Notes under the pieces: generated by a model
Databases searched by the model: none
What the model saw: the letters and a program-made list of their open reading frames with translations, nothing else
Told to the model about the DNA's origin: nothing
Source of the DNA: Alloascoidea hylecoeti
Taxonomy: Eukaryota
Reading direction: 5' to 3'
NCBI GenBank assembly: GCA_001600815.1
Contig: BCKZ01000022.1
Coordinates: 214,982 to 278,981, forward strand
Length of the DNA stretch: 64,000 bases
Shown: positions 24,914-58,846 of the stretch, piece by piece
How the letters are laid out: each line of letters starts with the position of its first letter
Numbering within the stretch: the first letter of the stretch is position 1
Translations under genes and position numbers: made by a program

Positions 24914-26120
24914 ATGAGAGGTATGAAAAGCAAAAATATGTTTAATCCTTCAAACCTACTAACGACTTTTTTTTTAAATAGAGTATAAACTAGTCGTTTT
25001 GGGAGCTGGAGGTGTTGGCAAATCTTGTTTAACAGGTAAGCTCTTTAAGTTCGTGGTTGATATTTTGACCCCTTTCAAAAAAATTTATCAACATTCAATA
25101 ACAATATGTTAACACGAGAATTTATAAATATTTAGTTCAGTTCGTCCAAGATGTTTTCGTTAATGCTTATGACCCAACTATTGAAGATTCTTATAGGAAA
25201 CAGATTGAAGTTGATGGAAGATTATGTGATTTGGAAATATTAGATACTGCTGGTGTTGCTCAGTTTACTGCAATGAGGTAAATATAAACAATAATAATAA
25301 TCATTTTCATAATTTATTCTATCTTACTATTTTACTAATATCTTATATTTGTTATAGAGAATTATATATTAAAAGTGGGAAAGGTTTTTTATTAGTTTAT
25401 AGTGTAACAGATCCAGCATCACTTCAAGAATTATTATCATTACGTGAAAAAATTATTCAAATTAAAAATTCTTTAAATATACCAATGGTATTAATTGGCA
25501 ATAAATGTGATTTAACTAAAGAAAGACTAATTAAACCAGAAAATGGAATTCAATTATCACAAGAATGGGGGAAAATTCCATTTTATGAAACTTCTGCAAT
25601 GAATAAAATTAATGTTGATGAAGCTTTTATTGATGTTGTTAGACAAATTATGAGAAGAGATTCTGAAATTGCAATTTCTATGAATTCTCCAATTTCATCT
25701 GATTTTAATAATAGTAATAATGGTAGTATTAATAATACAATTCCTAATAATGTTAGTAATGCTAGTCAACAATTACAACAACAACAACAACAACAGCAAA
25801 TTTCAAGTCAACAATTACATCAATTAAATGAAGAAGATGAAGAAGATATACAACAACAAGAAAAACCACAACGTAAAGATACTGAAAATTCAATTATTAA
25901 AACAGTCAATGAACAAAAAACTTTGAATCCATCAAATAAAAATACAACCGATAAAAATTCACAACAACAACAAAGTGAACCAATTTCTAACTCAAATAAG
26001 GCTAATACTGGTACTAGTTCTACAAAAGCTACGCCAATAAATCCAAAAACTGAAGCAAAGAAAGCAAAGAAATCGAAAAAGAAAGGTAAAAAACATAGAC
26101 ATCATTGTATCATTGTTTAA
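24914..26120 (+). CDS. RSR1: Rap-like small GTPase Rsr1/Bud1, 4 exons
   Basis: Exons 24914-24920, 24982-25035, 25136-25277 and 25358-26120 give [52 protein letters not shown], a polybasic stretch and CAAX (CIIV). Introns are GT..AG with branch-like motifs. Confidence 0.95.
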
Positions 26121-37809: not shown

Positions 37810-40287
37810 TTATACAATGTCTTTATAAATAGCATCTGCAATTTTAGCAGCACTTGTCATTTCTTTTACATCATGAACCCTTATAATATCACTCCCATTC
37901 CCAATACAAGCAGTAATAGTAGCAGCAGTTCCAATAACTCTATCTTTTGGAATTGGTTCATTTGTTATTGTCCCAATGAATTTTTTCCTTGATGGGCCTA
38001 ATAAAATAGGTAAACCATTTAAAGAAGTATATTTCGTTAATTCACTAAATGCATCATCTTCAATATCATCATTTTTAATACATGATAGACGAGAATAATT
38101 TGTAATTAATGGTAATTTTCGGATAATACTTAAATTTTGTTTTAAATTTTTTGCAAATCCAATACCAGGATCTAAAATAATTTGCCATTTTTTAACACCA
38201 GAATTAAATGCTTCTTCAACTCTATCTAATAATTCTCTTGCAATTATAGTAGCAACAACATAATCACTATTTTGTATTGATAAATCATTATTTGTTATAA
38301 TATGATGTAAATTATCATTTGTTTTATTATGATTAATTTTAATATATTCAATTGATGATGAAATATCATTAAAATCAATTAAATTTTCATAATGTGCTAG
38401 TTGATCCATCGTTGATGGTGTACCTCTTGTATGATTTATTATAATTGGAACATTTAATTTACCAATTGTTGAAAACATTTCTTTATCATAAGTACCACCA
38501 GAAATATCATTAATTATATCAGCACCTGCTTCAATTGATTGTTTAGCAACTTCTGATCTATAAGTATCAATTGAAATCAAAACTTTTTGTAATCTTTCGT
38601 CTGTTGATGATCTAATTGCTTTAACTGCAGGTATAACACGACGAAGTTCTTCATCGAGTCCAGGATCTGAACTACCAGGTTTAGTTGAAACGCCACCAAT
38701 ATCTATGATATCAGCACCATTATCAACCATTTCAATAGAAGATTTAATAAGATTTGAAACTTCTATATTATTTCCACCATCAGAAAAAGAATCTGGAGTA
38801 ACATTTAATATCCCCATTATATAAGTTCTTAAAGTATGATCTAATGGATCAAATTGTAATGCTTCATTAGTTCTTACAATTGGAATAGCAGTAAATAATT
38901 TTGAAGATAATTGTAATGAAGGATTAGATTTAGGTAATTGATGTAAATGAGAATGAAAAGTTTCAGCAGTTAAAGGATGAGTTTCAGATGGTGATAATAA
39001 TTCACATAATGGTTGTAAAACAAATGATCTTTCAACTATACCAATATGTGGAATAATTAATCTTGAATGATTTAAAATTAATTTATCGTATAATAAAATA
39101 TCTAAATCAATTGTTCTTGGACCTTTATCAATTAATTTAATTCTTTTTAAAATATTTGATTCAATATCTTGTAATTCATCTAATAATTCTAATGGTTCTA
39201 ATGTTGTTTTAACTTCAAAAACTCCATTTATAAATTTAGGTTGGTTTGTAACATACATTGGTTCAGATTCATATAATGATGAAGTAGCAACAACAGTAAT
39301 GTTTTTCTTATTTAATTCTTCATAAGCTCTTAAAATGTTATGATGTGGATTACCTTGATTTGTTCCAAATGCAATAAAAGCTTTATGAAATTCAATTTTT
39401 GAAGGTTGAAAAATCCCACTTGTTTCAGAAACATTATCTTCAGGATCTTCATTTGAATCAGGAAATAATTGAATTGAATTTTGTGGATTATGAGATAATT
39501 TTAATAAATCTATAGGTTCCCAACCATCAAAGAATTGTTTTGATCTAATAATTTCAACACCAACACCATCAGCAAAAGTAATTGCACTTGGTTTTTCAAC
39601 CCTAACTCTAACAGTTTCAATACCATGTTGACAAACCAATTGTGCAACACTTGTAACTAAAGCTTCAACAGTTTTAAATTGTGAATTTTCAATATATTTT
39701 GTAACATCATTAATCATTAAATGAATATCAAATTTTGAATAATCAATTTTTGGCTTTTCTAATTCTAAATCAATAATAATATTTTGTTTTTCTCTTCTTT
39801 CAAATGTAAATACACCAATAATTGTTGATAAAATTAATTTATTAATTTTAATTAAATCAGATATACCATCAACATTTTTAATAAAATTTTCATTTTTAGA
39901 ATGATCTTTTTGTCTAACTATAATAATTTCTAAACTTTTAGCACGTAATAAAGCTTTATCACAACTAATTTGAATTTTTGCCCATTGTCCTCCATTTTTT
40001 GATTCATCTAATACTTCATTTGCAACTTTTATTGAAATATCATCTAATGATTTAAATCTTGAACTAGGAGATTCTAATAATTCAGTTATATTTCTTGATA
40101 TAATTGCATAGTTTAATGAATGGTGTAAATGATCTGTTGCACCCGCTAATGCTAAAGAAGATCTTAAAGAAACTGATACTGAAACAGGTTGCGGTTTTGG
40201 TCTTTTCCATGCATCATGACCAGTTAAAACTTTTAATAAAAGACTTCGGATGAAAATTGTATCTGGTGCTGATGATGGAGTAGGCAT
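37810..40287 (-). CDS. FOL1: Trifunctional folate synthesis enzyme (2x DHNA, HPPK, DHPS)
   Basis: Tandem FolB domains (SLNYA; IIGVFTFER; FKTVEAL), HPPK (IAFGTNQG; GPRTIDLDILLY), DHPS (MGILNVTPDSFSDGG; SIDTY; LDPGIGF; GPSRKKFIG; IIRVHDV). A possible upstream extension is described in findings. Confidence 0.97.
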   Translation of the reverse strand: MPTPSSAPDTIFIRSLLLKVLTGHDAWKRPKPQPVSVSVSLRSSLALAGATDHLHHSLNYAIISRNITELLESPSSRFKSLDDISIKVANEVLDESKNGGQWAKIQISCDKALLRAKSLEIIIVRQKDHSKNENFIKNVDGISDLIKINKLILSTIIGVFTFERREKQNIIIDLELEKPKIDYSKFDIHLMINDVTKYIENSQFKTVEALVTSVAQLVCQHGIETVRVRVEKPSAITFADGVGVEIIRSKQFFDGWEPIDLLKLSHNPQNSIQLFPDSNEDPEDNVSETSGIFQPSKIEFHKAFIAFGTNQGNPHHNILRAYEELNKKNITVVATSSLYESEPMYVTNQPKFINGVFEVKTTLEPLELLDELQDIESNILKRIKLIDKGPRTIDLDILLYDKLILNHSRLIIPHIGIVERSFVLQPLCELLSPSETHPLTAETFHSHLHQLPKSNPSLQLSSKLFTAIPIVRTNEALQFDPLDHTLRTYIMGILNVTPDSFSDGGNNIEVSNLIKSSIEMVDNGADIIDIGGVSTKPGSSDPGLDEELRRVIPAVKAIRSSTDERLQKVLISIDTYRSEVAKQSIEAGADIINDISGGTYDKEMFSTIGKLNVPIIINHTRGTPSTMDQLAHYENLIDFNDISSSIEYIKINHNKTNDNLHHIITNNDLSIQNSDYVVATIIARELLDRVEEAFNSGVKKWQIILDPGIGFAKNLKQNLSIIRKLPLITNYSRLSCIKNDDIEDDAFSELTKYTSLNGLPILLGPSRKKFIGTITNEPIPKDRVIGTAATITACIGNGSDIIRVHDVKEMTSAAKIADAIYKDIV

Positions 40288-40898
40288 ATTATTACAATTG
40301 ATTGAATTTGAAGAAGATAATGTATTAATTGGTTCTGATTTAAGAGTTGTTGAAATATGTCTATGAAAAGAAAAAGAAAAACCGTTAGGAATTAGTCACT
40401 ATCTAATTATTAATAAAGGAACGGATTTAATATACCTTTTTAAACCATATAAACGGCAACCAGATAAAACTGGTTTATAAAATGCAGAAAACCCTGCAAA
40501 ACGAAACAATTTCAATCCCAGAATTTTTTTAACAAGTCTCCCAAAAGAAGAGAAATTAAAAGTATTAAAACTTTTTGTTTATTCACTTATCTTTACAAAT
40601 TTTGATAATGAAAATCAAAACTGATTTTTTTTACACATCACGTGCTACAACTGAGGAATCGAAGTGAAAATTTCTTTTATTTGAAGTATTTTTTTACAAG
40701 GAATTTTTGACAGCAAAAATATTAAACATTACTATTATCATCAAAATATATAAATTAATATAAGTACAGGCTCTGAGATCACATTAAAGACATTAAGGAA
40801 ATACTTTTATTTTTTTAGGTTATTGGCTGTTGTTTGTTTGTTGTTTGTTTGTTGTTATGAATAGATGAATGACTGCTTTTTGGATGAAAAATGAAAAA

Positions 40899-41336
40899 TT
40901 AATCAGTACCAGAACAATCTCTACTAATATGACCAGGTTTTCCACAAGTATAACAATTCTTTCCTGATTCTGCATTAGTACAATCTTTACTTAAATGACC
41001 GAATTTTCCACAAGCATAACATTTCGTAGAAGTAGATTGACAATCTTTAGCGAAATGATTTGGGCCACCACATTTATAACAAGAAGGAGGTGGTCTTTTT
41101 CCAAATCTTTGTGAGCGAGAACCAGTTTGTACAGGTCTATCATTTGAAGTTTCAGTAGATGGACAATTTCTAGAAATATGACCAAATTCATTACATTTAT
41201 AACATTTAGGACCGGATTTAGAATCTGATTGAGGTTCAGTACAGTTTGATTTAATATGACCACCTTTACCACAATTGTAGCATTTTCGGTTATCAGTTGA
41301 TGATTCAACGGATGTATTAACGGTTGTGGTGCTCAT
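40899..41336 (-). CDS. GIS2: CNBP/Gis2-type CCHC zinc-knuckle RNA-binding protein
   Basis: Five CX2CX4HX4C knuckles including CYKCGGPNHFAKDC; located between FOL1 and RTC4 as in S. cerevisiae. Confidence 0.9.
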   Translation of the reverse strand: MSTTTVNTSVESSTDNRKCYNCGKGGHIKSNCTEPQSDSKSGPKCYKCNEFGHISRNCPSTETSNDRPVQTGSRSQRFGKRPPPSCYKCGGPNHFAKDCQSTSTKCYACGKFGHLSKDCTNAESGKNCYTCGKPGHISRDCSGTD

Positions 41337-51099: not shown

Positions 51100-51966
51100 A
51101 TGACTTACGGTACTCGTGCTATTGGTGCTCCAAACACATTGGATTATAAGGTTTTCATTGAGAATGATGGTAAACCAGTCTCTCCCTTCCATGATATTCC
51201 ATTATATGCTGATGAATCTAAACAGATTTTAAATATGATTGTTGAAATTCCAAGATGGACAAATGCTAAATTGGAAGTTACAAAAGAAGATACTTTAAAT
51301 CCAATTAAACAAGATACTAAAAAGGGGAAATTAAGATTTGTTAGAAATAGTTTCCCACATCATGGTTATATTCATAATTATGGAGCTTTCCCACAAACTT
51401 GGGAAGATCCAAATTCAATTCATCCTGAAACTAAAGCAAAAGGCGATAATGATCCTTTAGATGTTTGTGAAATTGGTGAAACTGTTGGGTATGTAGGTCA
51501 AGTTAAACAAGTTAAAGTGTTGGGTGTTATGGCTTTACTTGATGAAGGTGAAACTGATTGGAAAATCATTGCAATTGATGTTAATGATCCATTAGCTGCT
51601 AAATTAGATGATATTGAAGATGTTGAACGTCATTTACCTGGTTTATTACGTGCCACAAATGAATGGTTTCGTATTTATAAAATTCCTGATGGAAAACCAG
51701 AAAATCAATTTGCATTTTCAGGTGAAGCAAAAAATAAAAAATATGCTGAAGAAGTTATTCGTGAATGTAATGAAGCATGGGAAAAATTAATTTCTGGTAA
51801 ATCTATTGATTCAAAAGGAATTGATTTAACTAATACTACATTAGATACAACTCCAACTTTTAGTGATTCTGAATCTTTGTCAATTCCTGAAAATCAAGGA
51901 TTACCTCCTGCACCAATTGATAAATCTGTTGATAAGTGGTTTTTCATTTCTGGTGCTTCTGTTTAG
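51100..51966 (+). CDS. IPP1: Cytoplasmic inorganic pyrophosphatase
   Basis: [45 protein letters not shown] and [13 protein letters not shown] at 51100. Confidence 0.97.
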
Positions 51967-56154: not shown

Positions 56155-58846
56155 ATGGATATTGATACCATAAATCAATCTAATTTTACGGATTCTTCTT
56201 CAACCCCACTTCCGATATTTAAAGGAGGTAAAAGTCTTTTGGGAAAAACATCGGAGAATTTCTCTGTGGAGGAAAGTGACATATCGGTTGATTCAGGTGT
56301 AACAGACTCTTCAACTCCACTTCCATTATTTAAAGGTGGTAAAAGTCTTTTTAGAAAGTCATCAGAAAATTTCCCTGTGAAGAAGAATGAAATATCAGCG
56401 GATTCAAGTTTTAAATCTCATAATAAAGAAAATATTTCATCTGACATTATCCCATCTTTTCCAATACAAAATAAAAAAAATCAAGATCGAAACATAATTT
56501 TATCAAATGGTAAAGAAATAATACTAAGAAGAAAGAAAAAAAATTCGTTATTAAATTTTAAATCAAATCAAAAATTACCAAGTATACAACATGCTTTACC
56601 ATTACCAAAACTTCCTCCTTCTCTACCTAAAATCAATACCAATTCGGATAATTCAAATTCAAATTCAAACTCAAAGGATAAAAATCGTTCGATTTTATGG
56701 ACAGAAAATTATAGACCAAAAAAATATATTGATTTAATTGGTGATGATAAATCTCATAGACGAGTTTTAAAATGGTTAAAATTATGGTCACAATTAGTTT
56801 TTGGAAAAATTATAAATTTTTCAAAATTTGATAAATCAAGATCAATATCAAAATCAAAATCAAATTTTATTCAACAAGAAACAATAATTGATGTATTAGG
56901 TAGACCAGATAAAAAAATCATTTTATTATCTGGACCACCAGGTATTGGTAAAACAACCATTGCTCATGTTTCTGCAAAACAAGCAGGTTTTAATGTTTTA
57001 GAAATTAATGCAAGTGATGAAAGAGGTGGTGTAAATGTTAAAGATAAAATTATAAATGCTGTTATGTCTCATTCATATAATGGTAAACCAACTTGTGTTA
57101 TACTTGATGAAATTGATGGTGCAACAGATGGTGGTTTTATAAAAGTATTGGTTGATTTGGTGAATCAAGATAATAAAGCAATAAATCAATTAAAACTTTT
57201 AAATGATAAAGAAAAATCATCATCAAAAATAATTAAAAAAATTATAAAAAGACCAATAATTGCAATTTGTAATGATTTATATTCATCACAATTAGAAAAA
57301 TTAAGACCATTATGTGAAATTTTAAAAATTGAAAAAATTAATAAAAATTCAATAATTTCAAGATTATCTTCTATATGTATTAATGAAAATTTATCATTAT
57401 CAAACAAAGATTTAAATGATATTGTTGAAATAAATGAATGTGATTTAAGAAGTTGTTTAAATTTTTTACAATTTGGTGGAGGTGAATCAATTATAAATAA
57501 AGAAGGACTATTTTCAAGAGATGGAATGTCAAGTTGGTTTACAGTTGTTAATCATGTTTTTAAAAGAGATTGGAAATCTACAAAAAAAATTGAATTTGAT
57601 AAATTAAACCGAATATTAGAAACTTCAACTCAATTCAATAAAATAATTACAAGTATGTATTAATTTCTTCTGGTTTCTATTATTATTATTATTATTACTA
57701 ACAATATAACTTCATAGAATGTTTTGCTACATATGCAAATTCTCGTTATCAAGATGATTTATTTAGTAAACCAATGATACTTGGAGATTGGTTATATTTT
57801 TATGATATAATTAATAAACAAGTTTATACCGAACAACATGGTGAAATGGTTGCATATTTACCACAAGTAATACTTTCATTTTTTAATCTTTTTAACGATT
57901 TAGGAAATAATGAAAATTTAAAAATTGATAATACTTATGAGGTAAGAGATTTCATTTACAAATTATGTTTATATTTTTTATGCTAATTAATGATATTATA
58001 TAGATTCAAGAAAAAGAAAAACAAACAAAAGATCAATGTCGTAAATTACTTTTATCAACATCAATATCATTAAGACAAATTTTTAAATTATCAACAATTT
58101 CTTTAGAATTAGCACCATATTTATTTAAAATTTTAAAACCTCAAGTTAACATCGTTAAATTAAATAATGAAAAATGTTGGGATTTTTTAAAATTAAAAAA
58201 ATCTTCTCAAATTATAGATGATTTAAATATTCAAATATTTTTAGAAAAACAAAAGAGTTATGAAAATGGATATATTGGAACAGGAGAAGTTGCAAAAATG
58301 ATACCGTAAGTTGAATTTTATCTATCAATTCAGATATATATATATATTTTTTTTGAAATGAAATACTAACAAAAACTAAAATTATTAAGACGGATTGATT
58401 TAATAACTATTTTTGGTGTAAAAGAAGAAAGATTATCAAGTCAAAAAATGGCAATTTTATTACCTTATATAAATGGACAATTAGAAAAATTAAGAATTGA
58501 TAAACATAAGAGATCATTTGGAACTTTTGAAAATGGTCAAGAAAAAATGTTTACAGTTTCAAAAAAGAAATCAGGTAAAAAACATAAATCAAAATCAATA
58601 AAAGATAAAGATAAAAATGAGAATGAGAATGAAGATTCACCACAGAAAAAACCAATGAAAAATAAGATTTGGTTTGCTAAAAATGATTCTACACGTATGA
58701 TTGGTAAAGCTGGTAGTGAGAGTCAAAGTATCAATGGAAGAATGGATGATATTCAAAGAAATAAATTAAGGATATGGGTTCGTTATAATGAAGGATTTTC
58801 AAATGCCGTTAGAAAAAATATCACATGGAAAGAATTGTGGGATTGA
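56155..58846 (+). CDS. CTF18: Alternative clamp loader large subunit Ctf18, 4 exons
   Basis: LWTENYRP, GPPGIGKTT, EINASDER, ILDEIDG, RPIIAICND and DLRSCLN motifs; C-terminal WVRYNEGFSNAVRKNITWKELW. Exons 56155-57652, 57718-57941, 58004-58305 and 58390-58846 splice in frame. Confidence 0.95.

Follow-up and report, generated by a model that had tools for sequence, protein, structure and literature searches.

A putative intron-split mitochondrial presequence with candidate near-cognate start codons upstream of FOL1 in the yeast Alloascoidea hylecoeti

The FOL1 locus and its homologues

The window analyzed here is a 64,000-nt stretch of Alloascoidea hylecoeti contig BCKZ01000022.1 (GC content 30%), from a genome of 24.8 Mb assembled in 136 contigs. 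Its minus strand carries FOL1, an ORF of 825 aa from the first AUG (37810..40287), in which dihydroneopterin aldolase, HPPK and DHPS domains (Pfam matches FolB, HPPK and Pterin_bind) all lie within a single ORF, as in the fungal trifunctional Fol1. The top PDB match is 2bmb, a Fol1 structure (E = 4e-116), and the nearest named homologues, at about 50% identity, come from Blastobotrys, Trichomonascus and Geotrichum, which places this yeast, in all probability, among the early-diverging budding yeasts, without near kin in the protein collection. The FOL1 promoter region is bounded by a CCHC zinc-knuckle gene identified with Pfam (40899..41336, minus strand), which we take to be Gis2-like and whose end is separated from the FOL1 AUG by 611 nt.

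The Fol1 protein cluster comprises two members, both beginning at Met 40287. The second public copy (P0121) shows at least two residue differences when compared by eye, implying that another strain or allele is present in public data. Among Fol1 homologues, 114 could be compared at their N-termini (120 alignment rows, minus six with a gap at the anchor column); these N-termini come from automated gene prediction, and the protein rows do not reveal the start codons. As called, 54 of the 114 have at most 12 residues before a conserved Asp, while 23 have a basic, acid-poor N-terminus, with a second Met in 15 of the 23 and, in six of them, an Arg-x-x-Ser/Thr motif resembling the one found at the FOL1 exon junction (see below). 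Three homologues (P0004, P0011 and P0067) exhibit a presequence-like stretch devoid of an initial Met, P0004 being called from Val, and may possibly represent further non-AUG cases. Environmental sequences are uninformative at this locus: the best 80 of 593 confirmed metagenome matches to Fol1 are all distant (27-41% identity) and do not inform on the leader, and three wood-decay metatranscriptome contig sets contain short pieces only, most of them less than 90% alike, which leave the FOL1 leader uncovered and are silent on splicing and expression.

A predicted 75-nt intron in the FOL1 leader

Upstream of the first AUG, we predict an intron of 75 nt (40361..40435, minus strand), with an AAG/GTATAT donor, two branch-like motifs (CTAAT and CTAAC, whose branch A is located 32 and 25 nt from the acceptor, respectively), a pyrimidine tract and a TAG acceptor. 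Its length is a multiple of three and it contains in-frame stop codons (TAG TGA at 40401-40396). A first-pass annotation of this DNA, made from the sequence, had proposed the same intron, running from GTATAT through CCTAAC and a pyrimidine tract to TAG; we recover all of its coordinates, with a score in the range of this genome.

Two approaches bear on this prediction. A position-free screen of 664 kb, requiring coding-like flanks and a GTA...CTRAY...YAG pattern that was chosen after the FOL1 intron had been seen, retained 22 introns from 152 candidate clusters, the FOL1 intron among them; an earlier screen without motif filters was too noisy. Secondly, a splice model was built from 45 other introns in about 1.05 Mb (median length 70 nt, donor GTAAGT or GTATGT in 32, TAG acceptor in 37), which were selected by signal, so that strong introns are overrepresented. 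On this model the FOL1 intron reaches 17.3 bits, compared with leave-one-out scores of 10.1-29.3 for the training introns, five of which score lower. Its donor, branch site, acceptor and length all fall within the range of the genome, with a total at the low end, and it is the top scorer among the 269 GT-AG pairs of the intergenic region. Taken by itself, such a signal is no rarity: an equally good intron occurs in 7.4% of 2,000 simulated leaders and in 32 of 238 real ones. The same AAG/GTATAT donor is found in the AlaRS gene, where a 118-nt intron (L142:1383-1500, TTAAC branch) is required to bring the first exon into the frame that the family model recognizes. In FOL1 itself, a TGACTAA motif overlapping the branch site shows no genome-wide enrichment (75 copies versus 67 expected). 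Taken as a prediction from these signals, the 75-nt intron is very probably real.

An open frame without AUG that resembles a coding exon

Once this intron is removed, the frame is open for 72 codons between TAA 40581 and ATG 40287: 48 codons in exon 1 (40436..40578, minus strand), with the intron falling inside the last of them, plus 24 contributed by exon 2 (40288..40360, minus strand). No in-frame ATG occurs in any of the 72 codons, in agreement with the first-pass annotation, and its statement that acidic residues are lacking also holds, as Asp and Glu are absent from all 48 exon-1 codons. The exon-1 frame would encode a putative mitochondrial presequence, and the exon-2 part of the extension continues with His-Ile-Ser-Thr after the junction Arg, followed by a Ser/Thr/Asn-rich linker.

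How often such a frame arises by chance was estimated from intergenic DNA. Among 826,804 intergenic windows of 48 codons, 3.3% are open and 0.25% are both open and acid-free. A second rule, less dependent on hindsight, took the 25 codons preceding any GT and required them to be open and acid-free with at least two Arg and at least four basic residues; 0.77% of 120,375 intergenic windows pass. The GC content of exon 1 is ordinary (41% of intergenic windows are equally high) and no Pfam family matches its frame. CTG is the rarest Leu codon (2.2%) and is absent from the FOL1 ORF; nevertheless, a single CTG among the 48 exon-1 codons is not unusual, and we dropped the idea of CTG as a selected codon.

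A comparison with other leaders is more telling. An intron of at least 16 bits lies just upstream of the first ATG in 33 of 238 long ORFs. The exon-1 frame is open for at least 25 codons in 23 of these 33, and 22 of the 23 contain an ATG, the sole exception being FOL1. In the nine other upstream-intron ORFs without ATG, only 0-23 exon-1 codons are open, versus 48 in FOL1. By these sequence comparisons, FOL1 exon 1 behaves as a coding exon without its AUG, because FOL1 alone lacks an ATG among the 23 and no other ATG-less frame exceeds 23 codons.

The encoded peptide is basic and acid-free, and its composition scores 1.8-3.6 bits. This ranks it in the top 2.5-5.6% when compared with 32,708 null peptides, and lies within the range (-6.9 to 9.3) of seven AUG-started presequence-like controls from the same genome. 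Calculated from the candidate starts, the hydrophobic moment is unexceptional, at 0.55, a value that 22% of null peptides attain. Within the open frame, amphipathicity peaks in a basic helix (window 40560-40515, minus strand) with a moment of 0.83, within the top 0.8% of nulls, and begins upstream of every candidate near-cognate start. A simple basic, acid-poor filter has low specificity: it also flags AUG-less frames upstream of the genes for clathrin light chain, Mo25, a zinc-finger protein, a kinase and several more, and among eight flagged genes that were scanned, at most one (a pyrophosphatase) is a plausible mitochondrial protein. Overall, the exon-1 peptide appears only moderately presequence-like, and cleavage would probably occur just after the junction Arg-His.

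Candidate start codons and the organization of the leader

Four near-cognate codons lie in frame within six codons, behind a run of A (40507..40524, minus strand): ATT 40524, CTG 40521, TTG 40515 and TTG 40509. The first-pass annotation had listed two of them, CTG 40521 and TTG 40509, and both do have A at -3, as it reported; ATT 40524 and TTG 40515 are additional. Ranked among the contexts of 143 AUG starts, ATT 40524 is at the 53rd percentile, CTG 40521 at the 41st, TTG 40509 at the 27th and TTG 40515 at the 8th.

A 6-bp hairpin of about -6.4 kcal/mol (40483..40498, minus strand) is predicted 8-20 nt after the CTG/TTG codons; the distance to its start is 14 nt from TTG 40515 and 8 nt from TTG 40509. 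Of 300 shuffles, 4-5 are equally stable in two windows, and 32 and 56 in two others; folding of the whole leader is unremarkable (z = -1.16). Kozak's work reportedly showed that a hairpin at such a downstream spacing can help weak start codons. The FOL1 hairpin is a possible initiation enhancer, and a weak candidate for that role. Further downstream, the spliced leader contains a minimal out-of-frame uORF, ATG GTT TAA (40440..40448, minus strand), whose start context is at the 3rd percentile. Like the in-frame stops of the intron, this uORF does not figure in the first-pass annotation.

Upstream of the open frame, a CACGTG promoter-type motif is located at 40639..40644. This motif is overrepresented in intergenic DNA (162 copies observed versus 83 expected) and concentrated 50-150 nt before a start (18 of 43 copies, about seven being expected under a uniform distribution); the trinucleotide most commonly following it is ATG (13 of 162 copies). 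At FOL1, CACGTG precedes the near-cognate cluster by 120-135 nt, inside the 50-150 nt peak, and AUG 40287 by 357 nt, a spacing which fits a start in the cluster.

Control genes with paired starts

Seven genes of this genome with two in-frame AUGs, labelled by family matches, served as controls: AlaRS, GlyRS, ValRS, HisRS, CysRS, Trm1 and one CCA-type enzyme. Their leaders contain no out-of-frame ATG between the paired starts (0 of 7 leaders, 1,053 nt), while about 19 would be expected at the coding rate. By contrast, the FOL1 leader has one such AUG (40448), and thus departs from the arrangement expected under leaky scanning. On this sequence comparison, uAUG 40448 argues against simple leaky scanning in FOL1; because of it, a short form would need leaky passage, reinitiation or its own downstream transcript.

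Among ten control genes of dual-target type, AUG-started presequence-like extensions occur in seven and a short AUG extension in one, while the remaining two carry AUG-less frames of 10 and 64 codons. Near-cognate starts are thus not the rule in this genome.

The closest structural parallel within the genome is the ValRS (VAS1-like) gene, which shows the layout proposed for FOL1: a presequence exon, an intron, a short exon and a second AUG. The ValRS intron (L147:1040-1158) is 119 nt long, a nearer acceptor (100 nt) being out of frame. ValRS differs from FOL1 in having a true first AUG, a spliced leader without out-of-frame AUG, and a second CACGTG inside the intron, the last of which hints at two promoters at this gene.

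Two genes deserve mention here. A second CCA-adding/PolyA_pol-family gene (L156; G000:C19, ~286280-286470, minus strand) is preceded by a 64-codon AUG-less frame, basic and acid-poor, with an ATT after AAA near its start, and is another candidate for a near-cognate presequence, whereas the extension of its paralogue on C6 (L155) is AUG-started. The RNase Z (Trz1-like) gene (L153) has 10 open codons before its AUG and no obvious long extension, whereas its K. marxianus counterpart has a GUG-started one (bioRxiv 10.1101/2022.03.25.485750, available text).

A proposed origin of two Fol1 forms, and its rivals

The explanation we favor, and consider probable on the features described above, is that a near-cognate start at 40524-40507 yields a mitochondrial Fol1, while AUG 40287 yields a short form. 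Transcription would start from a promoter around CACGTG 40644, probably placing the 5' end upstream of 40525, and the 75-nt intron would be spliced out of the leader. Some scanning ribosomes would then initiate at one or more of the four near-cognates, adding an extension of 49-54 residues before Met 40287, whose first 26-31 residues may act as a mitochondrial presequence and direct import. Short Fol1 could be made from the same mRNA if ribosomes pass the weak uORF at 40448 or reinitiate behind it; alternatively, it could derive from a shorter transcript beginning in or after the intron. If the intron were retained, the extension would stop at 40401 and only the short form would be produced. 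This agrees with the first-pass annotation as regards the intron, the presequence-like frame and near-cognate initiation, which we consider the likeliest start and for which K. marxianus FOL1 offers a precedent; the micro-exon that it offered as an alternative fares badly (see below). It also hypothesized dual cytosolic and mitochondrial isoforms, with splicing and start-codon choice as putative controls.

The most serious rival, although unlikely in our view, is that the intron belongs to the 5' UTR (or stays unspliced), that exon 1 carries a frame which is either never translated or left over from a presequence that has lost its AUG, and that translation starts only at 40287. The extension does lack an AUG, uAUG 40448 breaks the pattern seen in all seven control leaders, basic and acid-poor frames arise readily at 30% GC, and 54 of the 114 homologues are called with a short N-terminus. 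Nevertheless, such a frame has a chance of only 0.25-0.77%, the nine other ATG-less cases do not approach its 48 open codons, and near-cognate initiation has been found in the same gene of K. marxianus.

A more elaborate mechanism would have the weak, stop-containing intron, whose length is a multiple of three, gate between a near-cognate presequence and a dead-end uORF, with the two-codon uORF damping the AUG form. We regard this as quite unlikely.

Still less probable is a hidden AUG, contributed by a further upstream exon through a non-consensus intron or masked by an assembly or strain error. It would explain why the best amphipathic helix begins upstream of CTG, and it would bring FOL1 in line with the mostly AUG-started control genes; these controls, however, also have frames that stay open for 0-18 codons upstream of their first AUG. 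We found 18 splice routes bringing an upstream ATG into frame, all of them weak, with scores of at most 2.4 bits for those which keep the presequence. The best one (40697 to 40361, 337 nt) reaches 10.8 bits and bypasses the presequence. The route from 40697 to 40571 does supply an in-frame ATG, but at 2.4 bits it falls below all 45 training introns, and its exon would sit upstream of CACGTG. All routes other than the micro-exon (17 in total) were rejected by splice score.

Finally, the first-pass annotation had suggested that a 4-nt micro-exon, ATGT (40638-40635), spliced through 40634-40494, supplies the AUG; the join is in frame and gives the peptide that it predicted, but we reject this route as highly improbable, since its intron totals just 1.7 bits, less than any of the 45 training introns (donor GTAAAA 0.0, below 44 of 45; branch site -3.1, below 45 of 45), its 141 nt exceed every training intron (those derived from the screen being limited to 135 nt), and its ATG directly abuts CACGTG in a context at the 5th percentile.

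Comparison with known systems

Eisenberg's work of 2020 reportedly places FOL1 among non-AUG extensions. The closest case is FOL1 of Kluyveromyces marxianus, in which low-level UUG initiation upstream of the AUG produces, from one transcript, forms with and without a targeting signal (bioRxiv 10.1101/2022.03.25.485750). As in our favored explanation for A. hylecoeti, an upstream near-cognate of the same gene adds the targeting signal, while initiation at the downstream AUG yields a short form. The two cases differ in that the K. marxianus one rests on TSS mapping and ribosome profiling and involves leaky scanning, whereas ours is drawn from sequence; moreover, the available text of that study mentions neither an intron nor a uORF, whereas the A. 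hylecoeti signal is split by an intron and followed by an intervening uAUG. Fol1 of Saccharomyces cerevisiae is exclusively mitochondrial (Gueldener 2004, as cited in the same preprint).

As for gene layout, APE2 of Saccharomycetaceae likewise combines a targeting exon and an intron with a second start leading to a predicted cytoplasmic form, which possibly derives from a transcript starting in the intron (PMC7491326, available text). Unlike FOL1, APE2 exon 1 is AUG-started and the second AUG lies inside the intron (PMC7491326); A. hylecoeti FOL1 has no first AUG and its second AUG is 73 nt into exon 2. By analogy, A. hylecoeti FOL1 would plausibly work as K. marxianus FOL1 does, in an APE2-like layout.

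Upstream non-AUG starts also add targeting sequences in S. cerevisiae Ala1, Grs1, Hfa1 and Hyr1 (PMC6582344) and in Cryptococcus LeuRS and ArgRS (PMC7049704). According to the available text of these two sources, neighboring near-cognates can act together (PMC6582344, PMC7049704) and fungi have repeatedly switched between weak AUG and near-cognate starts (PMC7049704); neither main text, as available, mentions FOL1. In contrast to S. cerevisiae Ala1 and Grs1, the AlaRS and GlyRS genes of A. hylecoeti are AUG-started. Two other sources, as available, provide general background only (PMC7600831, PMC12687453). Our literature search, which covered a minority of subscription journals, returned no paper describing a Fol1 signal that is both intron-split and non-AUG. 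The basic mechanism is already known for this gene, and the novelty is confined to the intron that interrupts the targeting signal.

If the favored explanation is correct, the FOL1 gene model in this yeast misses a first exon and about 50 residues, and non-AUG mitochondrial targeting of Fol1 also exists far from Kluyveromyces, where it has survived an intron inside the signal. The locus would then be a small system, suited to reporters, in which to see how an enzyme is divided between compartments by splicing, a uORF and start-codon leakiness in combination. Should the more doubtful gating by the intron hold as well, the middle steps of folate synthesis could shift between cytosol and mitochondria through splicing efficiency and start-codon stringency, from one transcript; by extension, many yeast FOL1 calls with a short N-terminus may hide such signals.

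Other predicted introns and upstream frames

An inorganic pyrophosphatase gene of the window (51100-51966, plus strand) has a 29-codon AUG-less, basic upstream frame. Additional short introns are predicted in the window, six on the plus strand (146-209, 294-354, 25278-25357, 57653-57717, 57942-58003 and 58306-58389) and another on the minus strand (50543-50483). Elsewhere in the genome, exon 1 of the AlaRS gene contains three in-frame AUGs, and its intron carries a TGAGTCA motif, presumably of the Gcn4 type. Lastly, the tRNA isopentenyltransferase (Mod5-like) gene (L157) has two short introns, of 57 and 56 nt.
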